Positions 7,220 through 63,840 of a DNA stretch of 64,000 nt are shown here, piece by piece. Origin of the DNA: Candidatus Doudnabacteria bacterium (lineage in GTDB: Bacteria > Patescibacteriota > Doudnabacteria > UBA920); the NCBI GenBank assembly GCA_963768175.1, contig CAVYGQ010000002.1, positions 80,284 through 144,283 on the forward strand. Direction: 5' to 3'. Both the position numbers and the translations under genes were made by a program. The stretch's first letter is position 1, and each line of letters opens with the position of its first letter. The notes beneath the pieces were generated by a model that had not been told where the DNA came from, did not search any database, and saw nothing but the letters and a program-made list of their open reading frames with translations.

Positions 7220-7309
7220 TGGCGGAAGCGGAGGGATTCGAACCCTCGAGCCCTTTGACAGGCTGCGCGCTTTCCAAGCGCGTGCACTAGACCACTATGC
7301 GACGCTTCC
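7220..7309 (-). tRNA. tRNA-Ser (anticodon GGA)
   Basis: Reverse complement folds as a cloverleaf: acceptor GGAAGCG/CGCTTCC, anticodon loop TTGGAAA, long variable arm, T-loop TTCGAAT, encoded CCA; 90 nt. Confidence 0.9.
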
Positions 7310-33274: not shown

Positions 33275-33294
33275 AGCCGAGGGTTGATAAAAAT
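33275..33294. repeat. left copy of a perfect 20-bp inverted repeat flanking the tRNA-Asn locus
   Basis: AGCCGAGGGTTGATAAAAAT; its exact reverse complement lies at 33677-33696. Confidence 0.9.
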
Positions 33295-33310
33295 TAATTA
33301 TTTATCCACA

Positions 33311-33341
33311 AAAAAAGCGCACCAATTTGATGCGCTTTTTT
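33311..33341 (-). terminator. rho-independent terminator immediately 3' of the tRNA-Asn gene
   Basis: AAAAAAGCGCA-loop-TGCGCTTTTTTT abutting the encoded CCA. Confidence 0.7.
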
Positions 33342-33628
33342 TGGCTCGGGAGGTGGGATTCGAACCCACGACCCATCGGTTACACTTATCCCGATATTTC
33401 TATCAGGGGTGGACTATATCTTTACCTTAGCCACAAGAGTAGCTTTAGATACCCCGGTATCTAGTCTCTACGGCGCTCCTCCGCATTTGCAGAGGTTCCC
33501 ACGGTATTAGCGTATTAATCAAATGATTAAATTAGCCTTCACCGTTATCCCGGAGAGTTCATCCCAAAGTTTCCTTTGGGAGCTGCGTTATTCCACAGCC
33601 GATTGCTCTACCGCTGAGCTACTCCCGA
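33342..33628 (-). tRNA. tRNA-Asn (anticodon GUU) interrupted by a group I intron
   Basis: The exons (33595-33628 + 33595 5' exon to 33628; 3' exon 33342-33382) give a perfect 76-nt cloverleaf: acceptor TCGGGAG/CTCCCGA, D-arm with G18G19, anticodon stem ATCGG/CCGAT, loop CUGU|UAA, T-loop TTCGAAT, discriminator G, CCA. Confidence 0.75.
33383..33594 (-). ncRNA. group I self-splicing intron (212 nt) in the tRNA-Asn anticodon loop, between nt 35 and 36
   Basis: 5' exon ends in U and pairs as GCUGU with the intron guide GCAGC (U.G at the splice site); P7 strands AGAGACUAGA and AAGAUAUAGUCC; P9 hairpin CCCUGAUA-GAAA-UAUCGGG; terminal G before the 3' exon. Confidence 0.75.
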
Positions 33629-33676
33629 ACAAAAATAGATATTTAATTATCTTTTGATATTTTAGCAGTTAATCCT

Positions 33677-33696
33677 ATTTTTATCAACCCTCGGCT
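33677..33696. repeat. right copy of the 20-bp inverted repeat
   Basis: ATTTTTATCAACCCTCGGCT. Confidence 0.9.
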
Positions 33697-33975: not shown

Positions 33976-34242
33976 ATGCCCAAAGGCAAATACAAAGTCA
34001 GTCCGGAAGTTAAAACTCAAATTCTAAAACGAATTAAGGAAGAAGGTGTCAGCGTCACCCAGGCGGCCGAGGAGCACGGCCTGTCCACCCAAACCATTTA
34101 CGGCTGGATAGCCAAAGGGGTTACAGCTCCGCCGTCCGTGCTTGAACTCTCCCGCCTGAAGCGGGAAAATCAAACCCTCCACGAGATTATCGGCCGGCTG
34201 ACAGTCAAACTGTCATTGGCGGAAAAAAAGGACATTGGTTGA
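33976..34242 (+). CDS. IS3-family transposase OrfA (HTH)
   Basis: 88 aa; helix-turn-helix VSVTQAAEEHGLSTQTIYGW and a leucine-zipper-like C-terminus. Confidence 0.8.
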   Translation: MPKGKYKVSPEVKTQILKRIKEEGVSVTQAAEEHGLSTQTIYGWIAKGVTAPPSVLELSRLKRENQTLHEIIGRLTVKLSLAEKKDIG

Positions 34243-35074
34243 AGACCTGTCCGCCGCTATGCACCTTGAAAATCCGACTAAGACCGAGTTGGCCAGGAGC
34301 TTGGGAGTCAGCAGAGCCAGTCTGTATTACGAACCTACCCTGCCGCAAAAAGACTGGCTCCTTAAAATCCGCATTGAACAAACCCTGCATGACCACCCCA
34401 GCTACGGCCACAAACGGCTGGCTCCGGCGCTACATGTTAACAAGAAAAGAATCCGGCGCACCATGAGGCTGTTTGGTATTAAGCCTTACCGCAGGACAGG
34501 CAGAAAGCTAAGAAAAGCAAGGGATTTGGGACAAATTTCCGCTCCTTACCAAAACTGGCTGATGCTGATTCCGTTTCCAGAAGAGCCGGGAATTGTCTGG
34601 GTCAGTGACTTTACCTACATATCATTCCACGGCCGGTTTGTTTACCTGGCGACGATAATAGATTTATTCACCAGGGAGGTTGTCGGCTGGTCAGTCTGGA
34701 CCGCGCATAGCAGCCAGCTAGTTCTACTGGCTTTAATTGACGCACTGGAAAAACATCCGGCGGCCAAATATCTCCATTCCGACCAGGGGCAAGAATACAA
34801 ATCCCGAACCTACTGTAGGCTGGCCGAACAGGCCGGTATTACAATTTCCATGAGCCACAAATCATCACCGTGGGAGAACGGCTACCAAGAATCCTTTTAT
34901 GGCAAGCTCAAGACTGACTTAGGTGATCCGGGGAGGTTTAAGACCTTGGGAGAGCTAACGGCCGAAATTTACCTCCTCATCTACAGCTACAACCACGACA
35001 GAATCCATACATCATTAAAAATGCCGCCGTCAGCATTTGCCGACCGGCAGCGGAATCAAGTATCATTAACTTAA
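34235..35074 (+). CDS. IS3-family transposase OrfB (DDE integrase core)
   Basis: rve-type core HSDQGQEYKS ... SPWENGYQESFYGKLK; -1 frame relative to orfA. Confidence 0.8.
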   Translation: MVEDLSAAMHLENPTKTELARSLGVSRASLYYEPTLPQKDWLLKIRIEQTLHDHPSYGHKRLAPALHVNKKRIRRTMRLFGIKPYRRTGRKLRKARDLGQISAPYQNWLMLIPFPEEPGIVWVSDFTYISFHGRFVYLATIIDLFTREVVGWSVWTAHSSQLVLLALIDALEKHPAAKYLHSDQGQEYKSRTYCRLAEQAGITISMSHKSSPWENGYQESFYGKLKTDLGDPGRFKTLGELTAEIYLLIYSYNHDRIHTSLKMPPSAFADRQRNQVSLT

Positions 35075-48242: not shown

Positions 48243-50114
48243 GTGGCTTTGGCTGCGCAAAAGAAAAAACAATACAAACAAAACATGTTTAAGGCAGTAG
48301 GAATAAGTCATAGTGGGCGAGGGATAGTTTTGTATTTTTCCGAACAGGGCTCCCAAAAAGGGCGGGCGTTTATAGCCGTAAGCAAAGACGGCAGGTCTTT
48401 TAGTTCGCCCCAGGCTTCCCTGACTGTTCGCCCGGCTGTCGGCCAAAAAATTACGGATGGCATTTATGATTCCGTCCGGGTAACTTCCTCAGGCAGCCAG
48501 CAAAATATTACTTTTCTCAAAACGAACCAAAAAGGCAGTTACCTGTACCAGGCCAACGCCAAAAAATTTGATTATTGGAGCAAGGCTAGGTCAATTAAAG
48601 GAATTTCAGAGCCTGCGGTTGTGGTGGCGCCGGCAACAAACCGGCAGACAATGTTTTTTGGCCGCCACAACATTTTTTTGGCTACGGCCGGCCCTCGCGG
48701 CGTCTGGAAAATCTCGCCAAAGCCGCTGCTAGAGCCGCGCCAGAATTATTTTGACAACAGCGCGTTAGCGGTCGGACAGGCCAGAACGGTAGAGCAAGGG
48801 ATGTTATTGACTTATTACGCGCGGTACAGCGACAGTAACCATAAAGGGTTAATTACCGTCGGCGCCGCGCTTTTTGACAAGCAAAGTCCGGAAAAACTTT
48901 TATGGCGCAGCGACTACCCGTTGTGGCAACAACCTAAGGGGTACAGGAGCCGGCATATGGAGCCAGTTGGAGAAATAGATGTTAACGGGCAGTCTTTGCT
49001 TTTTTGCCAAAGCGAAAATGGCGACATTTTTTCCGTCGTCCTTCCCCTGTGGAATTGTTTTGTCCGCGCGGCGCAGGCCAGAAAGCGCCTGCCACACCTG
49101 GAGCGGTCGCCCAAGAATCCCGTCTTGAGCCCCAAGCTGGAGCACGACTGGGAGTCCAAGGCTGCCTTTAACCCGGCCGCTTTTTACGCGCGCGGCCGCG
49201 TGCACTTAATTTACCGTGCTATTGGCGACCGGGATATTTCCACTTTTGGTTACGCTTCCAGCGCCGACGGCGTGCATTTTGACGAGCGGCTGGACTACCC
49301 TATTTACGGGCCGCGTAAACATTTTGAAGGGACCGGCTTAAAAAAACCCGAGCACCCCAGCCATTTTGCCTCCGGCGGCACCGGCATCGGCGGTTGCGAA
49401 GATCCGCGCATCTCCCTGATTGACAATGTTTTATACATGACCTATGTGGCCTTTGACGGCCAAAACCCGCCGCGCGTGGCTTTAACCACCATCTCTCTGG
49501 AAGATTTTTTGAGCCACCGCTGGAATTGGACCGAGCCGGTGCTTATTTCTCCGTATATTCCCGGGGAAGGCAACAAAAATTGCTGCATCCTGCCGGAAAA
49601 AATCAACGGCCAGTACGTTGTGTTCCACCGTATTTGGCCGGATATTTTAATTGATTACGTTGATGATTTAAACTTTGACGGAAAGAACAAATTTTTAAGC
49701 AGGTCGGGTCATGCCAAAATAAAACCGCGGAAGATGCATTGGGATTCGCGCAAAATCGGTGTCGGCGCCACGCCGGTTAGGACCGACGCCGGCTGGCTGC
49801 TGATTTATCAGGCGGTGGGCAACCAGGACAGCGCCAAATACAAAATTGGAGCTATGCTGCTGGATTTGCACGACCCGGCCAAGGTGGTGGCCAGAGCCCA
49901 TGTGCCGGTGCTGGAACCGGAAGCTTGGTACGAAAACGAAGGCTGGAAATACGGCGTAGTTTATCCGTGCGGGGCGGCAGTGGTGGGCGATGACCTGTTT
50001 GTCTATTATGGCGGGGCCGACATGTATAGCTGCGTGGCCAAAGCCAGCTTGCCCGACTTTTTAACCCATTTATTAACTCATCAGCCGGCCACCTTGGCGC
50101 AGGTGGCAATATAG
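48243..50114 (+). CDS. glycoside hydrolase family 130-like protein (partial domain plus one full domain)
   Basis: NPVLSPKLEHDWESKAAFNPAA..LIYRAIG..FGYASSADGVHF..GGCEDPRISLIDNVLYMTYVAFDG hallmarks; the N-terminal half resembles a GH130 C-terminal portion. Confidence 0.7.
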   Translation: MALAAQKKKQYKQNMFKAVGISHSGRGIVLYFSEQGSQKGRAFIAVSKDGRSFSSPQASLTVRPAVGQKITDGIYDSVRVTSSGSQQNITFLKTNQKGSYLYQANAKKFDYWSKARSIKGISEPAVVVAPATNRQTMFFGRHNIFLATAGPRGVWKISPKPLLEPRQNYFDNSALAVGQARTVEQGMLLTYYARYSDSNHKGLITVGAALFDKQSPEKLLWRSDYPLWQQPKGYRSRHMEPVGEIDVNGQSLLFCQSENGDIFSVVLPLWNCFVRAAQARKRLPHLERSPKNPVLSPKLEHDWESKAAFNPAAFYARGRVHLIYRAIGDRDISTFGYASSADGVHFDERLDYPIYGPRKHFEGTGLKKPEHPSHFASGGTGIGGCEDPRISLIDNVLYMTYVAFDGQNPPRVALTTISLEDFLSHRWNWTEPVLISPYIPGEGNKNCCILPEKINGQYVVFHRIWPDILIDYVDDLNFDGKNKFLSRSGHAKIKPRKMHWDSRKIGVGATPVRTDAGWLLIYQAVGNQDSAKYKIGAMLLDLHDPAKVVARAHVPVLEPEAWYENEGWKYGVVYPCGAAVVGDDLFVYYGGADMYSCVAKASLPDFLTHLLTHQPATLAQVAI

Positions 50115-50123
50115 ATTATAGCT

Positions 50124-52016
50124 ATGGATATTCAACGGGCAAAAGAGAACCCCATTTTAAAAGGCAGCCCTGAATATCCGTGGGAAGCGGCGGGCGCTTT
50201 TAACGGCTCGGTGGTTTTTGACGGTGCGAAGTACCATATGGTCTATCGCGCCTTATCTAACGAACAGGATTGCCACGGCGTGGATATACAGGTTTCGTCT
50301 ATCGGCTATGCCCAAAGCGTTGACGGCATAAATTTCACAAACCACCGGCAACTCATACAGCCATCCGAGGAATGGGAAAAGTACGGCTGCGAGGATCCGC
50401 GCATGACCAAAGTGGGTGATACTTTTTTTATTTTCTATACCGCCCTGTCTGAATACCCTTTTAACAAAAACGGCATAAAAGTCGCGGTAGCAACAACCAA
50501 AGATTTAAACAACATTACGGAAAAGCACCCGGTTACGCCGTTTAACGCCAAAGCCATGGCCTTGTTCCCGGAAAAAATCAATGGCCAGTACGCGGCGTTG
50601 CTGTCGGTTAATACCGATAATCCGCCGGCGCGGATTTGTCTGGCGCTGTTTAACGGGCAGGAAGACATCTGGTCCGCCCCTTTTTGGAGGCAATGGTACG
50701 ATGATTTGGAAGACCATGTGCTGTTCGTCCGCCGCAACGACCATGACCACGTGGAAGTCGGCGCGCCGCCGGTTAAAACCTCCGAAGGCTGGCTGGCCGT
50801 ATTTTCTTACATCAGAGATTATTTTACCCCGCCCGCAACTTTTGGCATTGAGGCGGTTTTGCTTAAAGCGGACAATCCGTTCCGGATAATCGGCAGGACG
50901 GTAGAGCCGATACTGCAGCCGGAAGCCGATTACGAGCGAAACGGCAATGTGGCCAATATCGTCTTTCCCACCGGCGCTGTTGTGGATAAAAATCAACTGG
51001 CTGTTTATTACGGGGCCGCCGACACCACGACCTGCTTAGCTAAACTGCCGCTTTATCCGCTTTTGGAAACTATGGTGAGCAACGGACCGCCCACTATCCG
51101 TCTGCGGCGGTCAAGCCATAACCCTATACTCTCGCCCATACAAAACCACAGTTGGGAGGCTAAAGCCGTTTTTAACCCGGCGGCCTGGTACGGCGGCAAA
51201 AAAGTGCATTTGCTTTATCGCGCCCAAGGCTGTAGCAATACTTCGGTTTTTGGTTACGCCGCCAGCTACGACGGTCTGTCGCTGTCGGAACGCCTGCCGG
51301 AGCCGGTTTATGTGCCACGGGAAGAGTTTGAACAAAAATTGGTACTAGGCGGTAATTCCGGCTGTGAAGATCCGCGCTTAACGCAAATCGGCGACACCCT
51401 GTATATGTGCTATACGGCTTATGACGGCAAAAATCCTCCACGCGTGGCCTTAGCTTCCATTTTAGTGGAAGATTTTTTGTCTAAACGGTGGAACTGGACA
51501 GCGGCAAAGCTGATTTCTCCTCCCGGCCAGGATGACAAAGATTCCGCGCTCTTCCCCAAAAAAATCAAGAACCAATACGCGATTTTGCACCGTTTGGGGC
51601 AGGGCATTTGCCTGGACTTTTGCAATAATTTGGATTTTGGCGAAAGCCATTGGCTTGGAGGCAAACATTTGATGAATCCGCGGGACGAAAGCTGGGACAG
51701 CGTGCGCATTGGCATCGCCGCTCCGCCGATAGAAACCAAGTCCGGCTGGCTGTTGTTGTATCACGGCATTTCTCATCATGTCAAATATCGTTTGGGCGCG
51801 GCTTTGTTGGATTTAAAAGACCCGACCCGTGTGCTGGCCCGAACCGATGAGCCGATTTTGGAGCCGGAACTGCCTTATGAAAAATTCGGCGAGGTGCCGC
51901 AAGTCGTGTTCCCCTGCGGCGCCGTAGTGGTTGATGACACCTTATTTGTTTATTACGGCGCCGCCGATACAGTTGTCGGCGCCGCCCATATTAAACTTAA
52001 GGAGATATTGGGATAA
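50124..52016 (+). CDS. tandem double GH130-like domain protein
   Basis: Two repeats of the NP(I/V)L..P..WE..AAFN..YR..G...GYA.S.DG...GCEDPR...Y..YTA.DG pattern; 630 aa. Confidence 0.75.
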   Translation: MDIQRAKENPILKGSPEYPWEAAGAFNGSVVFDGAKYHMVYRALSNEQDCHGVDIQVSSIGYAQSVDGINFTNHRQLIQPSEEWEKYGCEDPRMTKVGDTFFIFYTALSEYPFNKNGIKVAVATTKDLNNITEKHPVTPFNAKAMALFPEKINGQYAALLSVNTDNPPARICLALFNGQEDIWSAPFWRQWYDDLEDHVLFVRRNDHDHVEVGAPPVKTSEGWLAVFSYIRDYFTPPATFGIEAVLLKADNPFRIIGRTVEPILQPEADYERNGNVANIVFPTGAVVDKNQLAVYYGAADTTTCLAKLPLYPLLETMVSNGPPTIRLRRSSHNPILSPIQNHSWEAKAVFNPAAWYGGKKVHLLYRAQGCSNTSVFGYAASYDGLSLSERLPEPVYVPREEFEQKLVLGGNSGCEDPRLTQIGDTLYMCYTAYDGKNPPRVALASILVEDFLSKRWNWTAAKLISPPGQDDKDSALFPKKIKNQYAILHRLGQGICLDFCNNLDFGESHWLGGKHLMNPRDESWDSVRIGIAAPPIETKSGWLLLYHGISHHVKYRLGAALLDLKDPTRVLARTDEPILEPELPYEKFGEVPQVVFPCGAVVVDDTLFVYYGAADTVVGAAHIKLKEILG

Positions 52017-53984: not shown

Positions 53985-54779
53985 TTATTTCCCCAAAACA
54001 GTTTGTTCGGCGATTTGGCGGAGGATTTTGGCGGTAGGAGGATCGAGAGTTAGGGGAGAGGCATTGGCGACTGATTTATTAAACAGGGTAACGTAAAACA
54101 CGCAAGCGGCTAAGTAGGTGCCTGCGGTTGAAGGATGCCTATCGTCTTGGTAAAGCTGAATTTCGGGATGGGTTTGTCTTACTACTTGCCAGGCTTCGCC
54201 AACCGGCGCCAACAGAGCGCCGGTTTTTTGTACCATTTCGTAGTAAGATTTAGACAGCTGGTTTTGCATCGCCGTGTAATTGCACAAGGTCGGGGAGTAA
54301 GTGCAATACTGCGGGTCGCCGTCTTTGTATCCCCAGGTTTCAAAGAACACGGTCTTGGTGGTGGAGCCCAGGGGATGAACTAGGCTGTCCAATTGCAGCG
54401 CATAGGGTATTACTTCATTATTGACGCGGGAATCCTGGAGCGCGGGCATTTCGCTTTGCTCTTGCAAGACCACAAAATTCCAAGGTTGGGATTTTATTTT
54501 ACTCAAAGCTGTTTGGTCGGTAGTGTCCTGTTTTAGCGTGTAACTGCCCGGGTCGTAGGCGTCGTATTTAACACTATCGTCCAGCGATTGGGCAATATCG
54601 GCAATTGTTTTAGGCAAATCGTTGACAGACGTTAAACTGTTGCCAAGAAATAGGACGCTAATGGTTGAGCCTTTTGATTTGGGCACGCCATATTTCGCGT
54701 AAACTAAAATCCCGCCGATCAATATTATCAGCACGGCGATAAAAACAGTATGTCGTGTGGGTTTGCTTTTGATTTCCAT
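53985..54779 (-). CDS. hypothetical secreted/membrane-anchored protein, SGNH-hydrolase-like
   Basis: N-terminal TM segment; VLFLGNSLT near the N-terminus. Confidence 0.35.
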   Translation of the reverse strand: MEIKSKPTRHTVFIAVLIILIGGILVYAKYGVPKSKGSTISVLFLGNSLTSVNDLPKTIADIAQSLDDSVKYDAYDPGSYTLKQDTTDQTALSKIKSQPWNFVVLQEQSEMPALQDSRVNNEVIPYALQLDSLVHPLGSTTKTVFFETWGYKDGDPQYCTYSPTLCNYTAMQNQLSKSYYEMVQKTGALLAPVGEAWQVVRQTHPEIQLYQDDRHPSTAGTYLAACVFYVTLFNKSVANASPLTLDPPTAKILRQIAEQTVLGK

Positions 54780-56179
54780 TATAAGCTAGCCAATTTGGCA
54801 GCCAAGCCGATATAATTTTCCGGCGTAAATTTTTTCAATTCTTTTTTGACTTTTGCCGAGACATCAAGTCCGTCAATAAATTTGTGGATATCGGCTAAAG
54901 TAACCTGTTTGCCGCGGGTGAGTTCTTTTAATTGCTCGTAGGGTATTGCTACGCCCTCGCGCCGCAGGACGGTTTGAATGGCTTCGGCAACCACTTCGGG
55001 ATGACTTTGTAAATCGGCGATAATTTTAATTTTATTTATTGAAATTTTAGAGAGGCCTTTGAGCAAATATTCGTAGGCAATCAGGCAGTGGCCAAGCGCT
55101 GTGCCGAAATTCCGTTCTACCGTGGAGTCGGATAAATCTCTTTGCAGGCGGGAAATGGGAAGTTTGCGGGAAAAGAATTCAAACAGCGCGTTGGCGAGTC
55201 CTAAGTTGCCTTCGCTGTTTTCAAATTTAATCGGGTTAATCTTGTGCGGCATGGTACTGCTGCCAACCGTACCTCCTGGGGATTTTTGTGCAACCCATTC
55301 ATCGCTAATGTACCGCCACATATCCTGATTAAAGCCGATTAAAATAGTGTTGATGTGGCGCAGGCAGTCAAAAATTTGGACTTCATTGTCATGGGGATCA
55401 ATTTGGGTTGTAAATAAATTAGGTTCTAGGTTTAAGGTTCTAGGTTTTAGGCTAGAGTGGTTATTAAGGCTGCCGACGAAATTTTTGCTGAATTTTACCC
55501 AATCTACTTTGGGATAAGCGGCAATATGTGCGTTATAATTGCCGCTGGCTCCGTTGAGTTTAACGGATATTTTAATGTTTTTGAGAATACTCGTCTGTTT
55601 GCTTAAGCGTACGGCAAAAATTTTAAACTCCTTGCCAAAGGTGGTCGGGGAAGCAGGTTGGCCATGGGTGCGCGCCAACATTGGAAGGTTTTTGTATTTT
55701 TTAGCCAAGCTTTCCAAAGCCTTGCGCACTTTGTTAAGCTCGGGAAGAATAATTTGTCCTAAGGCGTCGCTGAGCATCATTCCGCGGGCTAAGGTATTGG
55801 TGTCGTAGGAAGTCAGGGCAAAATGGATATATTCCAAAATATCTTTAAGTGAAGTGCCGCCCAATTTGTCTTTCATAAAATATTCCACGGCTTTGACGTC
55901 ATGGTCGGTAGCCTTGATGTTTTTGTAACCTTTGGTTTCAATATCGGAAATAATTTGCGCGTCCTTTTGAAAAAGTTTATAAAGATTTCGAATTTTGACG
56001 ATTTCGGCGTTTTTGAGTTTTCGCAGTTTCAAACCCTTGGTTTGTGAAAGCGCGATTAAATATTCGCCTTCCACAATTAAACGGTAGCGCATAAGGGCTT
56101 GTTCGCTGAAGTATTTAGCCAGGGGTTCCGCGGTTTTGCGGTAGCGGCCGTCAATGGGGGAAATGGAATTTAAAGGCAT
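54779..56179 (-). CDS. purB: adenylosuccinate lyase
   Basis: 466 aa; fumarate-lyase family signature region (GSSTMPHKINP). Confidence 0.9.
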   Translation of the reverse strand: MPLNSISPIDGRYRKTAEPLAKYFSEQALMRYRLIVEGEYLIALSQTKGLKLRKLKNAEIVKIRNLYKLFQKDAQIISDIETKGYKNIKATDHDVKAVEYFMKDKLGGTSLKDILEYIHFALTSYDTNTLARGMMLSDALGQIILPELNKVRKALESLAKKYKNLPMLARTHGQPASPTTFGKEFKIFAVRLSKQTSILKNIKISVKLNGASGNYNAHIAAYPKVDWVKFSKNFVGSLNNHSSLKPRTLNLEPNLFTTQIDPHDNEVQIFDCLRHINTILIGFNQDMWRYISDEWVAQKSPGGTVGSSTMPHKINPIKFENSEGNLGLANALFEFFSRKLPISRLQRDLSDSTVERNFGTALGHCLIAYEYLLKGLSKISINKIKIIADLQSHPEVVAEAIQTVLRREGVAIPYEQLKELTRGKQVTLADIHKFIDGLDVSAKVKKELKKFTPENYIGLAAKLASL

Positions 56180-56184
56180 AGGTT

Positions 56185-57198
56185 TTAGGTCTTAGGTTTT
56201 AGTAAATAAGCTGATAAATTTTTTTCAATCCTCTCCGCGATCGGTGTTTGTAAGTCTGTTTCAAACTTCTGGCCGGTGATTTGTTCAAATATCTGGATGT
56301 ATCTGCTTGATAATTCCGCGACCATATCTGCCGGAGCAGGGGGCAAGACTTTATCTTCGTAGGGATTACTGTGTTCTTTAAACCACAATCTTAAAAATTC
56401 TTTGTCAAAGTTTTGGGGCTCCAACCCGGCGTCTATTCTGGCTTGATAACTGTCCGCTTGCCAATATCTGGAGGAGTCCGGTGTGTGGACTTCGTCGATC
56501 AGCATTAATTTACCGTTATTATCAAGCCCGAATTCGTATTTAGTGTCTACCAAAATCAGCCCGCGGCTTAAAGCAATCTTTTGGCCGCGCTTAAATAATT
56601 TAATGGCGGTATCGGCAAGTTGTTTCCACAACTCTTTCGGCAGGATTTTTTCTTCAATAATCTGTTTGGAGTTAAGCGGCCTGTCGTGTTCATCCGATTT
56701 GGTAGTAGGGGTTAGCACCGGTTTTTTCAGCTTTTGGTTTTTTTTCATGCCGTCGGGCAGGGTAAAATCCCCAAAATCCCTTTGGCCTTTTTGGTAAAGC
56801 GTCCAAAGGCTGGTGCCGGTCACGCCGGTAATATAGCCTCTTACTACCATTTCTATGGGTATTACCGAGCATTTTTTTACCACCACCACGTTGGGGTCGG
56901 GCGAGCCGATAATATGGTTTTGGATAATGTTTTTGGTTTGACCAAACCAAAATTTGCTGGTCTGGGTTAATACTTGGCCTTTAAAGGGGATAAGCGCCAA
57001 GTTGCGGTCAAACGCTGAATACCTGTCCGTCGACACCAAAATAATTTTGTCCGGCTGGGTATAAATATCCCGCACTTTTCCCTGGCGCCTTAGGCCTAAG
57101 TTGATGTTTTTTCCGCCGGAGGCGGATCCGCCTTTGGCGGAAAAATCGGTCTTTTCCAAAACACGGGTTAAGTTTTGCTGGATTGTTTGTTTGTCCAT
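56185..57198 (-). CDS. purC: phosphoribosylaminoimidazole-succinocarboxamide synthase (SAICAR synthetase)
   Basis: 337 aa long-form PurC; GKVRDIY and LILVDTKYEFG motifs. Confidence 0.85.
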   Translation of the reverse strand: MDKQTIQQNLTRVLEKTDFSAKGGSASGGKNINLGLRRQGKVRDIYTQPDKIILVSTDRYSAFDRNLALIPFKGQVLTQTSKFWFGQTKNIIQNHIIGSPDPNVVVVKKCSVIPIEMVVRGYITGVTGTSLWTLYQKGQRDFGDFTLPDGMKKNQKLKKPVLTPTTKSDEHDRPLNSKQIIEEKILPKELWKQLADTAIKLFKRGQKIALSRGLILVDTKYEFGLDNNGKLMLIDEVHTPDSSRYWQADSYQARIDAGLEPQNFDKEFLRLWFKEHSNPYEDKVLPPAPADMVAELSSRYIQIFEQITGQKFETDLQTPIAERIEKNLSAYLLKPKT

Positions 57199-57211
57199 AA
57201 ATAATTAATAA

Positions 57212-58249
57212 TTATTCCCAAGCTAATTTATTTTTAAATTCAACCAGCTTATTACCAGCTTTTATTGTGCCAACGGGGTAAGCCTTTACGCCGGATTTTT
57301 GCAAATGGTTAATTACGGATTGGACAAAATCTTTTTTTACGACAGCGGTTATGCCAACTCCCATATTAAAAGTTTTTAGCATATCGACATCTTCAAGTCG
57401 GCCGAATTTTTTTAAAATTTTAAAAATAGGCAAGATTATAATTTTACTAAGATCTATTTGGGCGTTTAGTTTTTGAGGTAAAATCCTGTCCAAATTTTCC
57501 TTAATGCCCCCTCCGGTAATATGTGCCAAGCCGGTTAGTCCAGGTTTGCCAAAAAGTCCTTTAAGACTATTGTAGTAACAGCGATGAGGAGTAAGGATGG
57601 TTTTTAGAAAGCTTTGTCCATTTATTTTTGAGTTTAAAATTTTAGGCCGCTCCTTCATAATTTTTCTCACCAACGAGTAGCCGTTGGTGTGAAGACCACT
57701 GGAAGCCAAGGCCAAGACGATATCGCCGGATTTGATTCTGGAACCGTCAATAATGTCCCCTTTTTCCACTACCCCGATTATACTGGCACTCAAAATGTAA
57801 GTTCCGGCTTCCACCACTCCGGGCTGTTCCGAGGTTTCGCCGCCGGTTAAGACGCATCCGTTTTGTTTGCAGGCTTGGGCTAATGAAGAAACGATTTTCA
57901 CCACAATTTTCTTTTCCATTTTCCCGCAAACAATGCAATCCTGTACGGACAGCGGTGTGGCACCCATAACAATAGCATCGTTAATCAGATGTCCTATAAG
58001 GTCATAGCAGATGGTTTGAACGCTGTTATTCTGTAAAGCCAATTTTTGTTTTGTTCCCGGCTCCTCGGTTTTAAATACTAAGACCGGATGTCTATATCCG
58101 GGAAAACGGCCGTCAAACAGCGTGGCAAACGCGCCTACCTTATTTAGTACCTTGGAATTGTTAGTTTTTAGCGCTTTTGCCATTTGGCGTTTGCTATCGT
58201 TGGCAACGTCAATGTTTACCCCAGATGTTTTGTAAGATAACTTTACCAT
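57212..58249 (-). CDS. purM: phosphoribosylformylglycinamidine cyclo-ligase (AIR synthase)
   Basis: GLAHITGGG and PurM N/C-terminal domains. Confidence 0.9.
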   Translation of the reverse strand: MVKLSYKTSGVNIDVANDSKRQMAKALKTNNSKVLNKVGAFATLFDGRFPGYRHPVLVFKTEEPGTKQKLALQNNSVQTICYDLIGHLINDAIVMGATPLSVQDCIVCGKMEKKIVVKIVSSLAQACKQNGCVLTGGETSEQPGVVEAGTYILSASIIGVVEKGDIIDGSRIKSGDIVLALASSGLHTNGYSLVRKIMKERPKILNSKINGQSFLKTILTPHRCYYNSLKGLFGKPGLTGLAHITGGGIKENLDRILPQKLNAQIDLSKIIILPIFKILKKFGRLEDVDMLKTFNMGVGITAVVKKDFVQSVINHLQKSGVKAYPVGTIKAGNKLVEFKNKLAWE

Positions 58250-58762
58250 CTATTTGCTCTTTAAATATTTTTTATACCCTTGCTTTTTTAACTTTTTGGC
58301 CTTGGTATTTATGGAACTTGCTAAGGCTCTTTTGTAGTTAGATAATTTTTTAGCCAAGCTTCCATCAGTCGTCGCTAAAATTTGTACTGCTAAAAGCCCC
58401 GCGTTTTTCGCGCCGTCAATTGCCATGGTGGCTACTGGAACGCCGGGAGGCATTTGGAGCGTGGATAAAAATGCGTCTAAGCCGTTAAGTTTCCAGTTTA
58501 TCGGTACGCCAATAATGGGTAAAGTAGTATTTGCTGCCATCGCGCCTGCCAAATGCGCGGCGCCGCCGGCGCTGGCGATTATTACTTTTAGCCCGCGGCC
58601 AATAGCTGTTGTAGCGTATTCGTGTGCTTGCTTTGGCGTGCGGTGGGCAGAGCAAACGGTTATTTCAAAAGGCACGCCGAATTTTTCCAAAACCTTGGCC
58701 GCTTCCTGCATTACCGGAAGGTCGCTGTCGCTGCCCATTATAATTCCGACTTTTGGGTTCAT
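58250..58762 (-). CDS. purE: 5-(carboxyamino)imidazole ribonucleotide mutase
   Basis: VGIIMGSDSDLPVM and IIASAGGAAHL motifs. Confidence 0.9.
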   Translation of the reverse strand: MNPKVGIIMGSDSDLPVMQEAAKVLEKFGVPFEITVCSAHRTPKQAHEYATTAIGRGLKVIIASAGGAAHLAGAMAANTTLPIIGVPINWKLNGLDAFLSTLQMPPGVPVATMAIDGAKNAGLLAVQILATTDGSLAKKLSNYKRALASSINTKAKKLKKQGYKKYLKSK

Positions 58763-58783
58763 AAATATAATCTTAATTAATTT

Positions 58784-58993
58784 TTAAATTGGATCATCCA
58801 TATAATCTTGCGTATCTTCTTCCTCACCTTTTCCTATACCGGTAATAGGTTCATGTGGAGGTGGAAATTTAGGGAGTTCTCCATGAGGTTTTTTTGGCGG
58901 AAGAGGCCTGAATTGAGGTTCTCCCCTAAGGTTTTGTTGTATTGTTTCTTTCATAATTTTAAGGTTAGTTATTTCTAATCTTAATTTTAGCAT
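58784..58993 (-). CDS. small hypothetical Pro-rich protein
   Basis: 69-aa ORF between purE and the HAD gene; no recognisable motif. Confidence 0.25.
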   Translation of the reverse strand: MLKLRLEITNLKIMKETIQQNLRGEPQFRPLPPKKPHGELPKFPPPHEPITGIGKGEEEDTQDYMDDPI

Positions 58994-59006
58994 AAACCCA
59001 TATAAG

Positions 59007-59705
59007 TTAGGAATTGAGTTTTTTAATAATCCTAATCAAATCTTTTATATTATTGATTAAAAAGTCAGAATGGTGTTTTTTGAGGCGGGCGATGCTGTTC
59101 CAGCCGCCAGCCAGAGCAACGGTATGGTAACCAAATTGTTTGCCTATTTCGATTTCTTCTTCCGTATCACCCACAGAAATTATCTCAGATGGTTTTAATT
59201 TATTTTTTTTGGCGTAATTTTTGAGCTTGTCGGCCTTACTTCTGTTATGTAGGTGCGATCGGTCGCCCTCCATTCTGGCTAAGGTTGTCGCAAAATACTT
59301 TTTTATTTTAAGTCTTATGAGATGCTTGTTTATGTCAAAAATAGTGTGATTACTATATATAATACTTACAATAGATTGCCCCTCTAGCCATTCCAAAGTT
59401 GTTTTTACTCCGCCACGGGTACGACAGTGTTTGGCTTGTATTTCGTAGTTTGAATGAAAGATCCGATTAATTTTAGTAAAATTTTTATTAAAAAATTTAA
59501 TATCAAATCCAGCCTTAAGCCAATAATTTTTTACAGGGATTTCAAAAGTTTTTTGAAAATGTGCTAAGCTTATAGGTCTTAGTTTGAACTTAACCAACGT
59601 TAAGCTATTGGCTCTGATATTGGCATTAGTATCAGCGAGGATTGTTCCGTTCCAGTCAAAGGCGATTAATTTTATTGCCATAAAATTTTCTTTTTCCGGC
59701 GTCAT
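59007..59705 (-). CDS. HAD-family hydrolase
   Basis: IAFDWNGTIL motif I and GDTEEEIEIG motif IV region. Confidence 0.7.
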   Translation of the reverse strand: MTPEKENFMAIKLIAFDWNGTILADTNANIRANSLTLVKFKLRPISLAHFQKTFEIPVKNYWLKAGFDIKFFNKNFTKINRIFHSNYEIQAKHCRTRGGVKTTLEWLEGQSIVSIIYSNHTIFDINKHLIRLKIKKYFATTLARMEGDRSHLHNRSKADKLKNYAKKNKLKPSEIISVGDTEEEIEIGKQFGYHTVALAGGWNSIARLKKHHSDFLINNIKDLIRIIKKLNS

Positions 59706-59795
59706 TCTGAGCCCGAATGCATCTGAGGGCGAAGAATCTTTTCAACTTTGATGGGATCCTTCGCTCGATGAACTCGCTCAGGATGACGCCACAGT
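59690..59795. repeat. palindromic element GTCATTCTGAGC...GCTCAGGATGAC
   Basis: Inverted arms around GATCCTTCGCTCGA; related to the 31327 and 53216 elements. Confidence 0.5.
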
Positions 59796-61193
59796 GGTAA
59801 GTGATTGCTGCCCGATGTCGGTGCGGTAGTGTAAGCCGTCAAAATTTATCAGTTTTATCGCGGCGTAGGCTTTGTTTAAGGCGGATTGCAAATCATCGGC
59901 AACTGCCGTAACTCCCAGGACGCGGCCGCCGTTGGTGATAACCCCTCCTCGCCCCCCCTCTGCAAGGGGGGGAACGGAAGGAGAAAAGGCTGTACCAGCG
60001 TGGAAAATTATTATGTCATCCAGCTTTTCCGCTTCCTCTATCCCTGTGATAATTTTGCCTTTTTCGTATTTGCCGGGATAGCCGCCGCTTGATAAAACAA
60101 TGCAGCAGGCGTACTGTTTGGACCATTCAATTTTAACATCTGCTAATTTACCGCCTATACAAGCTTCCAAAATATCCAGCAAATCGGTCTTTAAAAGGCG
60201 CATATAGCTTTGCGTTTCCGGGTCGCCAAAGCGGGAGTTGAATTCTATAACCTTAGGGCCGTCTTTGGTCATCATCAGCCCCGGATAAAGTAAGCCCACA
60301 AACGGCAAACCCAGGTTTTTTAATCTTTCCAGCGCCGGTTTTACAATTTTTGACGAGACCTCGTCCATTATTGCTTCGCTAACCCACGGCACCGGGGCAA
60401 TGGTGCCCATACCACCCGTGTTTGGGCCTAAGCCTCCATCGAAAATCGGTTTATGGTCTTGGGACGAGGGCAGTAATTGGAAATCATTCCCGTCGGAAAA
60501 AGCGTGGATGGAAAATTCTTGTCCTTGCAAAAACTCTTCTACAACAACTTCGTTTCCGGCATCGCCAAAAATTTTATTAACCATCACGTCCTGCAAGAAT
60601 TTTTTAGCTTCATCCAAAGTTTTACAAACGCTCACGCCCTTGCCTAAAGCCAGACCGGAGGCTTTGATGACGATTTTTCTTTCTTTTCCTCCCCCTTCAG
60701 GGGGGAGGCTAGGTGGGGGTGAAGCAGGACTTGTCGTGTTCCACCCTCCCCCAGCCCCTCCCGTCAAGGGAGGGGAAAGATAATAGGATTCTATATATTG
60801 CAAAGCCTTTTCATAGTCCGCAAACGTCTTGAATTCTGCAGTTGGGATGTTATTTTTTTGCATTAGCTCTTTGGCAAAAGCCTTGCTGGCTTCTATTTGC
60901 GCGGCCTGCTTGTTCGGGCCCCAAATTTTAAGCCCGCGTTTTTGAAATTCATCCACAGCCCCCAAAGCCAAAGCATCATCCGGGCCGACAACGGTTAAAT
61001 CTATCTGATTTTTTTCAGCCCAATCGGCCAAAGCTAAAACATCGTTTGCGCCAATCGCAACATTTTCCCCAAGCTGTGCGGTGCCCGCATTGCCCGGCGC
61101 GGTATAAATTTTGCCCACGCGAGGAGACTGTTTAAGCTTCCATGCCAAAGCGTGTTCGCGCCCGCCACTGCCGATTATAAGTAAATTGACCAT
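59778..61193 (-). CDS. purD: phosphoribosylamine-glycine ligase carrying in-frame low-complexity insertions
   Basis: MVNLLIIGSGGREHALAWK N-terminus, ATP-grasp core; extra segments SPPLTGGAGGGWNTTSPASPPPSLPPEGGGK and SVPPLAEGGRGG are not in canonical PurD. Confidence 0.9.
   Translation of the reverse strand: MVNLLIIGSGGREHALAWKLKQSPRVGKIYTAPGNAGTAQLGENVAIGANDVLALADWAEKNQIDLTVVGPDDALALGAVDEFQKRGLKIWGPNKQAAQIEASKAFAKELMQKNNIPTAEFKTFADYEKALQYIESYYLSPPLTGGAGGGWNTTSPASPPPSLPPEGGGKERKIVIKASGLALGKGVSVCKTLDEAKKFLQDVMVNKIFGDAGNEVVVEEFLQGQEFSIHAFSDGNDFQLLPSSQDHKPIFDGGLGPNTGGMGTIAPVPWVSEAIMDEVSSKIVKPALERLKNLGLPFVGLLYPGLMMTKDGPKVIEFNSRFGDPETQSYMRLLKTDLLDILEACIGGKLADVKIEWSKQYACCIVLSSGGYPGKYEKGKIITGIEEAEKLDDIIIFHAGTAFSPSVPPLAEGGRGGVITNGGRVLGVTAVADDLQSALNKAYAAIKLINFDGLHYRTDIGQQSLTTVASS
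59944..59980. repeat. GC-rich palindrome inside purD (encodes PPLAEGG on the minus strand)
   Basis: CCCCCCC-TCTGCAA-GGGGGGG. Confidence 0.8.
60688..60775. repeat. cluster of GC-rich palindromes inside purD
   Basis: CCTCCCCC-TTCA-GGGGGGAGG and CCCCTCCC-GTCAA-GGGAGGGG, in frame. Confidence 0.8.
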
Positions 61194-61256
61194 AAAGTTT
61201 AGTTAAATTTCCGCCAGAGGCGGATCCGCCTACGGCGGAAAATAAAATTGACAAAA

Positions 61257-61604
61257 TTATAGAAACAACGCGGCGACAAAACCTAAAATGCCAAAAATCA
61301 AGCCAATAAAAGCTCCCTTAGTCGGCGTTTGGCCGCCGACGAAATAAGCCATAAACGGTTCTATAATCAAAATGGAAGTAATGGATATTACGCTGACTAT
61401 CCAAATATTTTTAAAGTTTTTTAGGCCAAGCATGTAACCGGCGAGCAGGAAGATGCCGGAAATTAAGATCATCGGCCAGATCCTAAAAAAGACCCTGGCA
61501 AAAGATTCGGCATGTGTATGGTAATATCGGGCGCCAAAAATTTCGGCGTAAATGCCGGCGAGCTCACCGATAATTATGATTGTCGCGGCTAAAAATTTGT
61601 TCAT
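61257..61604 (-). CDS. hypothetical membrane protein
   Basis: 115 aa, four TM segments; inside the pur operon. Confidence 0.4.
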   Translation of the reverse strand: MNKFLAATIIIIGELAGIYAEIFGARYYHTHAESFARVFFRIWPMILISGIFLLAGYMLGLKNFKNIWIVSVISITSILIIEPFMAYFVGGQTPTKGAFIGLIFGILGFVAALFL

Positions 61605-61644
61605 ATTTTAAGTCACATTATTTAACGACCGTTAAATAATGTGA

Positions 61645-62244
61645 TTATGTTGTTGTCAATTTTTGGAGTACTTCCACATAAAGCTGATTTTCTTTGGCTT
61701 TGAGCCTGGCATACAGAGAATCAACGTTATCGCTTGCCTGGATTTTTTCAAACACCCGTCCCAGCACCGGGCCAAAGTCAAAGTTTAGAGTTAAAAAGTG
61801 GATGGAGGAGCCGGCATATGCGGCTTTTTGGTTTAAAAAATTTGCTATTGCTTTTTCGGTCAGCATCCCTTTGTTCCACAAACCATCGGTGTTGTCAGGA
61901 TTTTTTACAATGCCATCAACCGTATTCGGAATAAGGCCTGGGTGTAGGTTTAAAATTTTATTGGGGAAAGCCAAAATAACCTCGTCTAAAATGATTTGTT
62001 TCCAGCCGGCCAGGCAAATGTAATCGGGCTGTAATTTTTTAAGTAACGGCAACAATTCTTCCTTGCGCGGGCAGATTTGAATCGGTAAATTATGTTTTTT
62101 GGCGCGCTCCAAACCTAAGGCGTCGGCTTTGTCGGAAATTACGGCCGCGATTTTGGCTTTAATTTTACTTTGGGCAATTCCATCAATAATTGCCTGCAGG
62201 TTGGTGCCGGTGCCGGCGTTGGAAATAAGGACGACGAGGTTCAT
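61645..62244 (-). CDS. purN: phosphoribosylglycinamide formyltransferase
   Basis: MNLVVLISNAGTGTNLQAIID ... NLHPGLIP formyltransferase motifs. Confidence 0.85.
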   Translation of the reverse strand: MNLVVLISNAGTGTNLQAIIDGIAQSKIKAKIAAVISDKADALGLERAKKHNLPIQICPRKEELLPLLKKLQPDYICLAGWKQIILDEVILAFPNKILNLHPGLIPNTVDGIVKNPDNTDGLWNKGMLTEKAIANFLNQKAAYAGSSIHFLTLNFDFGPVLGRVFEKIQASDNVDSLYARLKAKENQLYVEVLQKLTTT

Positions 62245-62355
62245 AAAGTTAATGACAAAAATTAAATAAATGACAAAATTGACAAAAATGAATGCAGTTA
62301 TTTTTGTTCATTTCCGTCCGCCTCGGCTCGCGCCGGGCGAGACGGGTCGTTTTTT

Positions 62356-63840
62356 TCATCCTTGTTCACTTTTCTGGTATACCGGCTCTTTAACATCCGC
62401 TTGTTTTTCTTTTAAGTCTATCGGGTAATGTCCGGTAAAGCAGGAAGTGCAGAAAAGTTCTTCCGAGAGTCCGGTAGATTTTATTAAACCTTTGAGCGAT
62501 AAAAAGCAGAGTGAGGTGGCACCTAAAAACTGCCGAATTTCTTCCACGGTTTTATGCGAAGCAATCAGCTTTTCCTGTTTAGGTGTGTCTATGCCGTAAA
62601 AGTCGGGAAACTTTACCGGCGGTGAGCTGATAAGCATGTGAACTTCTGTGCAGCCGGCCTCAAACAACATTTTTACCAATTGGCGGGAAGTGGTGCCGCG
62701 GACAATGGAGTCGTCCATGACAATAACTTTTTTGCCCTTTAAAACTTCGGTCAAGGGAGTAAGTTTTAATTTTACCCCCAGGTCGCGGCTGTGCTGTTCG
62801 GGCTGGATGAATGTCCTATGGATGTAACGGTTTTTTACCAAGGCCATTTCCATTGGGATAGCGGAAACGCTGCTGTAACCGCTGGCCACCGGGTAGGCGG
62901 TTTCCGGGACCGGAACCACAATATCGGCATTTTTAGGGTATTCTTTAAACAGCTGGATGCCAAAGTTTTTGCGGACTTCGTAAATTGACTTGCCTAAAAT
63001 GTTGCTGTCGGGGCGAGCAAAGTAAACAAATTCAAAAATATCCACTTTAGTTTTGCTCGGCTCAATTTGTACGGACTCAACGCCGTTTTTGGTAACAATT
63101 ACCATTTCACCGGGATTGACTTCGCGCACAAAGTCCGCGCCGACGGTATGGAAGGCGCAGGATTCGGAGGCAAAAACTATGGCGTCGCCGTTAACCCCGT
63201 TAGAAGTCTGATGCGCTTGCGCATCAGCAGTCCCGACTTCTGGTCGGGACTGACTTCTAATGGGGTAAATCTTCCCCATACACAGGGGCCTGATGCCAAA
63301 AGTGTCGCGCACCGCCACCAAGGTATCTTTGGTTAAAATTGTCAGACAAAAAGCGCCAGTAAACAGCGGATAGCTTTTTACTACGGCGTCTTTAATTGAC
63401 AGTCCGTGTTCCAGATAGTAGCCTAAGGTTTTGGCCATAAGCTCGGAGTCCGAGCAGTCGTTGGTGGGAATGTCTTTTGCTTCCAAGAATTCTTTAAGCA
63501 GCCTTACCGAGGGCAGGTTGCCGTTGTGGGCCAAAGCCAACTGGTTGTCAATTACTACGGGTTGGGCGTGTTTAATGTTTGAACCTTCGGAGGTGGAATA
63601 ACGGTTATGACCAATGGCTATATGGCCTTTTAAATTTTGGATGGTTTCTTCATTATAGACATGGGTAACCAAACCCATATTTTTATAGCAATCTATGTGG
63701 TTGCCGTCGGCCGTGGCAATGCCGCTGCTTTCTTGGCCGCGGTGCTGGAGCGCGAACAAACCGTAAAACGTCAGGCGGCTGACGTCCAAATTTTTGCCGT
63801 AGATGCCGAAGACGCCGCATTTTTCTCCGAGATTTTCCAT
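62356..63840 (-). CDS. purF: amidophosphoribosyltransferase carrying an in-frame insertion
   Basis: MCGVFGIYG N-terminal nucleophile, PRTase domain; about 20 extra residues (SQSRPEVGTADAQAHQTSNGVNG) relative to canonical PurF. Confidence 0.9.
   Translation of the reverse strand: MENLGEKCGVFGIYGKNLDVSRLTFYGLFALQHRGQESSGIATADGNHIDCYKNMGLVTHVYNEETIQNLKGHIAIGHNRYSTSEGSNIKHAQPVVIDNQLALAHNGNLPSVRLLKEFLEAKDIPTNDCSDSELMAKTLGYYLEHGLSIKDAVVKSYPLFTGAFCLTILTKDTLVAVRDTFGIRPLCMGKIYPIRSQSRPEVGTADAQAHQTSNGVNGDAIVFASESCAFHTVGADFVREVNPGEMVIVTKNGVESVQIEPSKTKVDIFEFVYFARPDSNILGKSIYEVRKNFGIQLFKEYPKNADIVVPVPETAYPVASGYSSVSAIPMEMALVKNRYIHRTFIQPEQHSRDLGVKLKLTPLTEVLKGKKVIVMDDSIVRGTTSRQLVKMLFEAGCTEVHMLISSPPVKFPDFYGIDTPKQEKLIASHKTVEEIRQFLGATSLCFLSLKGLIKSTGLSEELFCTSCFTGHYPIDLKEKQADVKEPVYQKSEQG
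63201..63259. repeat. nested palindrome (cloverleaf-like) inside purF
   Basis: TAGAAGTC[CTGATGCGC-TTG-GCGCATCAG][CAGTCCCGAC-TTCTG-GTCGGGACTG]GACTTCTA. Confidence 0.8.

Follow-up and report, generated by a model that had tools for sequence, protein, structure and literature searches.

A compact group I intron between anticodon positions 35 and 36 of a tRNA-Asn(GUU) gene from a Doudnabacteria-like genome

The split tRNA-Asn gene and its flanking signals

The minus strand of the 64-kb window (the whole stretch of DNA that was analyzed) carries, at 33628-33342, a tRNA-Asn(GUU) gene that, as read from the sequence, is split between anticodon positions 35 and 36 into two exons separated by a 212-nt group I intron (Table 1). 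Exon 1 ends in ...GGCUGU, and exon 2 (UAACCGAU...GCCA) also includes the 3' strand of the anticodon stem, the variable loop, the T arm, and the 3' strand of the acceptor stem. When the exons are joined in silico, ARAGORN recognizes a 75-nt tRNA-Asn(GUU) with a 7-bp acceptor stem, a GG pair of residues in the D-loop, the T-loop sequence TTCGAAT, a discriminator G, an encoded CCA, and a 7-nt anticodon loop, CUGU|UAA, that has GUU at positions 34 to 36. A preliminary description of this locus had listed the same acceptor stem, GG, T-loop, G, and CCA, all of which are found in the ARAGORN model, along with a mature length of 76 nt, which is one nucleotide too long. It left unmentioned both the strand and the second possible choice of junction, the one that would produce tRNA-Thr(UGU) (see below). 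The sole tRNA that standard tools find in the window is tRNA-Ser(GGA).

The sigma-70-type promoter-like site upstream of the gene shows 10 matches to the 12 consensus positions plus an extended -10 TG and ends approximately 30 nt before tRNA position 1; judging from this consensus match, it would be expected to drive the tRNA gene. On the opposite side, the terminator that had been predicted after the CCA is indeed present: its hairpin (GCGCAUCA/UGGUGCGC), followed by the U7 run, begins 7 nt past the CCA, has a folding energy of -22.5 kcal/mol (z = -5.6), and was also found as an inverted repeat. An A7 run precedes the hairpin (on the 33341-33335 side), so that the terminator could act in both directions. 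The hairpin downstream of the CCA, which direct folding shows, is missing from the output of a consensus terminator scan of the window; one guess is that the scanner absorbed the A and U runs into the stem. A similarity search of the locus against phage sequences returned no match.

Table 1. Coordinates of the tRNA-Asn(GUU) gene, its intron helices and flanking signals, and other features of the window
Feature	Position	Strand	Description
Sigma-70-type promoter-like site	33659..33687	-	TTGATA, 17-nt spacer, TG-TAAAAT
tRNA-Asn exon 1, 34 nt	33595..33628	-	Acceptor 5' strand, D arm, anticodon-stem 5' strand, loop C32 U33 G34 U35
Group I intron, 212 nt	33383..33594	-	RF00028 match, hand-made helix map, covariation, MFE fold
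P1	Exon side 33600-33594 / internal guide 33587-33581	-	
P2	33580-33563	-	GAAA loop
P3	33555-33550 with 33457-33452	-	CUCCGG/CCGGGG
P4	33545-33540 with 33506-33501	-	ACGGUG/UACCGU
P5/P5a	33536-33510	-	Distal hairpin in P5
P6/P6a	33500-33472	-	
P7	33466-33462 with 33416-33412	-	GACUA/UAGUC; forms pseudoknot with P3
P8	33451-33423	-	Directly after P3'
P9	33407-33390	-	GAAA loop, then AUAAGU and terminal G
Omega-G	33383	-	Last intron base
tRNA-Asn exon 2, 41 nt	33342..33382	-	U36 A37 A38 to G73, plus encoded CCA
Intrinsic terminator	33310..33335	-	8-bp GC-rich hairpin (33335-33317), then U7 (33316-33310)
20-bp inverted repeat, first arm	33275-33294	+	AGCCGAGGGTTGATAAAAAT
20-bp inverted repeat, second arm	33677-33696	-	AGCCGAGGGTTGATAAAAAT
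IS3-family transposase	33976-35074	+	orfA (HTH_Tnp_1) and orfB (rve)
GGNTTGATAAAAA sites	25333, 32618, 33281, 33678, 35166, 56219, 56516		At most 1 mismatch
tRNA-Ser(GGA)	7220-7309	-	
purB, purD, purF and PEP synthase genes	54779-63840	-	
	830-3394	+	
Two adjacent paralogous genes	48243-52016	+	623 and 630 aa

Intron anatomy and covariation among its relatives

The intron (GGAAUAAC...AUAAGUG) contains no open reading frame, and its P1-P9 helix map was drawn by hand on the window sequence. In P1, the exon end G29-U34 and the first intron base pair with C42-G43-C44-A45-G46-C47-U48, so that GGCUGU is paired with GCAGCU and the U34.G43 wobble forms the last exon pair, located at the cleavage site (U34 is the last nucleotide of the 34-nt exon 1). 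The sequences GAGACUAGA and AAGAUAUAGUCC are both present, and P3' begins 4 nt after P7, with no insertion between the two. Folded alone, with no homology input, the intron reaches -71.7 kcal/mol (z = -4.6), and the MFE structure recovers P2, P4-P5, P6a, P8a (the distal part of P8), and P9. A P10 pairing was looked for by eye, and none was convincing.

The Rfam model RF00028 (Intron_gpI) matches positions 33630-33390 over model positions 1-253 with 45.0 bits, which is below its gathering score of 50 bits, and this is why a default Rfam scan is silent at the locus; the E-value is 4e-10 in a search of 801 nt and 3.2e-8 in a search of the whole window. The covariance-model check that had been suggested for this locus thus gives the expected family at a low E-value and, at the same time, a score that stays under the gathering score. 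The latter is an operational threshold and not a structural feature, and the match easily passes the cutoffs of 18 to 20 bits or E < 1e-4 that are used in the papers on tRNA-borne introns (bioRxiv 10.1101/2020.01.27.920355; PMC13011429). The RF00028 match, the splice model, and the covariation (see below) all agree with the earlier proposal that tRNA-Asn(GUU) carries a group I intron of 212 nt at its 35/36 site, and the individual hallmarks proposed with it, namely, a 5' exon ending in U, a guide pairing that produces a U.G splice-site pair, the two P7 strands, a P9 hairpin with a GAAA loop, and a terminal G, were each located in the sequence.

Relatives of this intron were sought by scanning species-level genomes (one per species) with the pattern AGACUAGA...AGAUAUAGUCC...GGUUCRANUCC, which revealed at least 119 related loci, nearly all of them in Patescibacteria MAGs; since the pattern was derived from the window's own core, this set is biased towards the subtype of the window intron. 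When a locus had to have U at position -1, a terminal intron G, an unbroken anticodon stem, and a 35/36 junction, 103 introns remained among the matches listed (loci L051-L169), in the genes for tRNA-Asp(GUC) (50), tRNA-Asn(GUU) (29, with the window counted), and tRNA-Tyr(GUA) (24); in all of them, exon 1 ends in CUGU and the guide is GCAG. These hosts are three of the four tRNAs with GUN anticodons; no tRNA-His gene with a compact intron was seen among the matches listed. The nearest relative of an intron resides in the same host tRNA in 87 cases of the 103 listed and in a different tRNA species in the other 16.

The 29 Asn pre-tRNAs, including the one from the window, were aligned with MAFFT (402 columns), and the hand-drawn P1-P9 structure and the cloverleaf were counted on this alignment. 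In the hand-drawn structure, 92.6% of the cells are paired, compared to 36 to 45% when the partners are slid by 1 to 3 columns and to 74% in the shuffled control, in which none of the 500 shuffles attained the observed value; 55 of the 85 pairs have changed on both sides. Pairing reaches 100% in the acceptor, D, and T stems and 95% in the anticodon stem, and all four show covariation across these homologs. Within the intron, P3 and P4 are both 100% paired, the former with 4 covarying pairs and the latter with a fully compensated A-U/U-A swap; in P2, all 7 pairs covary, and covariation is also seen in P5, P6a, P8, and P9. The pair 35:42, which extends P1 and is formed by the first intron base and the base preceding GCAG, is intact in all 29 sequences (GC in 14, AU in 7, CG in 5, UG in 2, and GU in 1), and the splice-site pair U34.G43 is U.G in every one of them. 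Alignment columns U245 G246 | U247 A248 A249 are invariant in the 29 sequences. So is P7, which shows no covariation, partly because the search pattern fixed it, and is therefore neither supported nor contradicted by this type of evidence. MAFFT aligned the distal portions of P5, P6, and P8 less well (73 to 84% paired, with lower values at the extreme tips). For the tetraloops, invariant G.AA alignment columns were the sole evidence taken into account, as regular-expression counts of tetraloops and receptors proved too noisy. With a fold at z = -4.6 and covariation across 29 homologs, the intron is not a chance feature.

Six of the related loci with the same 35/36 intron type (L054, L074, L095, L100, L111, and L113) come from MAGs labeled as "uncultured Gammaproteobacteria" or "Bdellovibrionales"; either this intron type is not confined to Patescibacteria or the bins or their labels are wrong. 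In a seventh such MAG (L056), the core lies inside an ARAGORN call of tRNA-Met(CAU) that is split at a different site. The P7...J8/7 core GTAGAGACTAGA...AAGATATAGTCC was also detected in at least 50 IMG/VR viral contigs (L001-L050). In 31 of the 50 contigs listed, there is no split tRNA around the core; the remaining ones listed are called as Leu(UAA), SeC(UCA), Cys(GCA), etc., and a single one has the CUGU...GCAG signature, so that most of the 50 cores lie outside tRNAs with GUN anticodons. These viral cores probably belong to other group I introns, e.g., those in phage genes.

Alternative readings of the locus

Taken as a whole, the sequence features described above make it very probable that the locus is a functional tRNA-Asn(GUU) gene in which a compact group I intron of 212 nt, devoid of a homing-endonuclease gene, separates U35 from U36. 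Three other readings were weighed against it.

One of these is that the gene is a decaying relic whose intron can no longer splice, with the cell relying on an intron-less tRNA-Asn gene located elsewhere in the genome. Such a reading could draw on the presence of an IS3-family transposase gene approximately 350 nt away, on the P5 receptor motif GCUAAU...UACGC, which is a variant of the common GCUAAG...UAUGC, and on the tRNA content of the visible 64 kb, where ARAGORN finds one other tRNA, Ser-GGA. However, all helices of the family consensus are intact in the window copy, the cloverleaf is perfect, and both the promoter-like site and the strong terminator have been kept; the window copy also has every column that is invariant among the 29 aligned sequences, which is true by construction. 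Furthermore, an intron-containing and an intron-less gene for the same anticodon are rarely found in one genome (Nakagawa et al., PMC13011429). On balance, a relic appears improbable.

The second reading retains the intron and shifts its 212 nt by 2 nt upstream, so that the exons are joined as CU|UGUAA and the product is a tRNA-Thr(UGU) with an intron between positions 33 and 34; the intron would then run GUGGAAU...GAUAAG (CU|GU...AAG|UGUAA). [quoted passage not shown] Nevertheless, it is U34 that makes the U.G wobble in all 29 homologs; the U at the alternative site is paired with A in every one of them, and the covarying pair 35:42 continues the P1 helix past U34. The base that would be the last in the shifted intron is an A in 4 of the 29 homologs, which leaves 35/36 as the only site that works for the whole family. 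The acceptor ends point in the same direction: the Asn family has U1-A72 and G73 in 29 of 29 sequences, in contrast to G1-C72 and U73 in 62 of the 63 intron-less tRNA-Thr genes from the same loci. In bacteria (E. coli), G73 is an identity element of tRNA-Asn, and G1-C72 is an identity element of tRNA-Thr. The mature sequence is 83 to 84% identical to the published intron-split tRNA-Asn of Patescibacteria and, on average, 66% identical to the local tRNA-Thr(UGU). Finally, the same miscall is on record: both ARAGORN and tFind misassign 35/36 introns of tRNA-Asn to Thr(UGU), and the 2-nt shift has been disproved by sequencing of the spliced product (Nakagawa et al., PMC13011429). Standard tRNA finders fail on those introns and on the present locus alike. 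With the U.G wobble, the U1-A72/G73 pattern, the A in 4 of 29 sequences, and the sequence identity all favoring Asn, the tRNA-Thr(UGU) identity was rejected as very improbable.

A third reading, in which the 212 nt represent some other structured RNA, such as the tmRNA that had been named as a potentially better fold, or a chance resemblance between two unrelated tRNA-like fragments, is prompted by the silence of the default Rfam scan at gathering thresholds and has next to no likelihood: tmRNA is matched only by a 16-bit fragment in the T arm, the group I model is matched over its full length (E = 3e-8), the flanks form a complete and covarying cloverleaf, the same exon-intron-exon arrangement recurs at 102 other loci or more, and, at a permissive E-value, the other Rfam families produced only weak terminator-like or fragment matches, none of them near 45.0 bits (IS128 scored 32 bits, with a gathering score of 80).

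Known introns, proposed splicing pathway, and genomic neighborhood

[quoted passage not shown] An intron-mapping tool revealed 17 new intron settings, which brought the total, with the four classical ones, to 21 classes (Williams 2020, bioRxiv 10.1101/2020.01.27.920355); the tRNA-Asn class with the 35/36 site bears in that work the name "Asn.4Ug," as quoted in PMC13011429. Nakagawa et al. 2026 (mSystems, PMC13011429) reported 35/36 introns in 15 tRNA-Asn, 3 tRNA-Asp, and 1 tRNA-Tyr genes in 95 complete genomes of Patescibacteria, and their Table S5 also places such introns in tRNA-Asn(GUU) genes of Cyanobacteriota, Nitrospirota, and Bipolaricaulota. For one Asn and one Asp intron of this type from Patescibacteria, precise self-splicing was demonstrated in vitro, and a change of the terminal G to C abolished it (PMC13011429). 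The window sequence is absent from Table S3 of that paper, and the intron comes from a Doudnabacteria-like genome; it has in common with the published 35/36 introns the host tRNA, the insertion site, the U at position -1, the terminal G, the phylum, and the lack of a homing-endonuclease gene. The compact subtype seen in the window is represented in Table S3 by introns in the tRNA-Asn of GCA_030583765.1, the tRNA-Asp of GCA_023898525.1, and the tRNA-Tyr of GCA_016699995.1, the first of which is 67% identical to the window intron. The tRNA-Asn intron that was spliced in vitro (from GCA_016700035.1) differs by an additional hairpin located between P7 and P3' and shares only 56% identity with the window intron. 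Given this difference, it is by analogy that the compact subtype in tRNA-Asn, including the window copy, would be expected to be active and to undergo guanosine-dependent self-splicing.

The classical bacterial tRNA introns belong to subgroup IC3 and are found in cyanobacterial and plastid tRNA-Leu(UAA) at 34/35, in tRNA-Ile(CAU) of Azoarcus at 36/37, in tRNA-Arg(CCU) of Agrobacterium at 36/37, and in cyanobacterial tRNA-fMet at 33/34. They share with the window intron the core GUAGAGACUAGA...AGAUAUAGUC and differ from it in the host tRNA and the insertion position; the intron in the tRNA-Leu gene of Nostoc shows 55% identity to the window intron, which is the background level. The small size, GNAA loops on P2 and P9, receptor-like loops in P8 and P5, and lack of an insertion between P7 and P3' add up to an architecture that is presumably Azoarcus-like. 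Subgroup IC3 was considered for the window intron on account of its compact core and pair of GNAA loops, but the intron was not placed there because the tRNA introns of Patescibacteria belong nearly all to subgroup IA and none to IC (PMC13011429). The IA1 and IA2 introns listed for tRNA-Asn of Cyanobacteriota, Nitrospirota, and Bipolaricaulota have the same host tRNA, site, and CUGU|...GCAG type of P1; as listed in Table S5 of that paper, they are longer (258 to 283 nt) and contain extra sequence between P7 and P3' that the window intron lacks. An intron in tRNA-Phe of Elusimicrobiota that is labeled IA3 in the same table also looks compact, which makes IA3 a plausible assignment, by architecture, for the window intron.

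The following pathway is consistent with the general chemistry of group I introns and the in vitro splicing of the homologous 35/36 introns. The pre-tRNA would be transcribed from its own sigma-70-type promoter up to the hairpin-U7 terminator, and the intron folds into the P1-P9 core, as the covariation shows. The nucleotides C31-U34 and the first intron base pair with the guide xGCAG, so that the U.G wobble at U34 marks the 5' splice site. As in the Azoarcus intron, the P2 and P9 loops of the GNAA type probably dock into internal loops of P8 and P5 that resemble receptors. [quoted passage not shown] RNase P and 3' trimming would complete the 75-nt tRNA with its encoded CCA. In evolutionary terms, the intron very probably belongs to a single lineage, found across Patescibacteria at CUGU|N, a site that tRNA-Asp, tRNA-Asn, and tRNA-Tyr have in common.

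A more far-reaching and rather doubtful proposal is that the compact introns constitute a single mobile lineage that recognizes only C32-U33-G34-U35 through the invariant GCAG and, owing to the recognition of just four exon nucleotides, has moved repeatedly among the tRNAs with GUN anticodons. In other bacteria, these tRNAs (Asp, Asn, Tyr, and His) carry queuosine at position 34. In a stronger version of this proposal, an intron at G34-U35 may couple tRNA maturation to anticodon modification or to the GTP level. The published papers on 35/36 introns contain no discussion of a link to queuosine.

Since introns of this kind were catalogued in 2020 and their self-splicing was shown in 2026, what is new here is one further example; the locus adds a case to the published pattern and by itself opens no new question. 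Its main value is as a warning for annotation. The gene is missed both by ARAGORN without the intron mode and by Rfam at gathering thresholds, and the intron mode of ARAGORN turns it into tRNA-Thr(UGU), so that the genome would seem to lack tRNA-Asn. For reduced genomes, an apparent absence of this kind skews both the estimates of completeness and what is inferred about decoding. The detection of the compact subtype in tRNA-Asp, tRNA-Asn, and tRNA-Tyr genes from more than 100 species-level genomes suggests that it is far more widespread than could be seen in the 95 complete genomes.

The window encodes DnaG, RpoD, UppP, enzymes of purine synthesis, and the IS3-family transposase. Its RpoD is 85 to 91% identical to proteins that are labeled at NCBI as Candidatus Doudnabacteria or Patescibacteria group, and the host was assigned to Patescibacteria on the basis of these RpoD relatives and the taxonomy of the related loci. 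The transposase genes, orfA and orfB, lie approximately 350 nt upstream of the promoter-like site of the tRNA gene. The whole tRNA unit, from the promoter to the terminator, is bracketed by a perfect 20-bp inverted repeat with 382 nt between its arms, for which the chance expectation is zero matches; the arm upstream of the tRNA includes the -35 box. At none of the other loci in the set of 107 intron-split tRNA genes examined do the flanks contain an inverted repeat of more than 11 nt. This repeat could be a duplicated promoter element or, as it encloses the tRNA unit, could represent the ends of an invertible or mobile cassette. With at most one mismatch allowed, the motif GGNTTGATAAAAA occurs at 7 sites, compared to 1.6 expected (none of the 100 shuffles reached 7), and resembles an extended -35 promoter element peculiar to this genome.

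De novo synthesis of nucleotides is absent from many Patescibacteria. The presence in the window of purB, purD, and purF, along with a gene for PEP synthase, makes the purine-synthesis gene content of this genome worth a look. The window also contains two adjacent paralogous genes whose C-terminal halves match the models of beta-1,2-mannobiose phosphorylase, the second of them above the curated cutoff (474.6 versus 450 bits).
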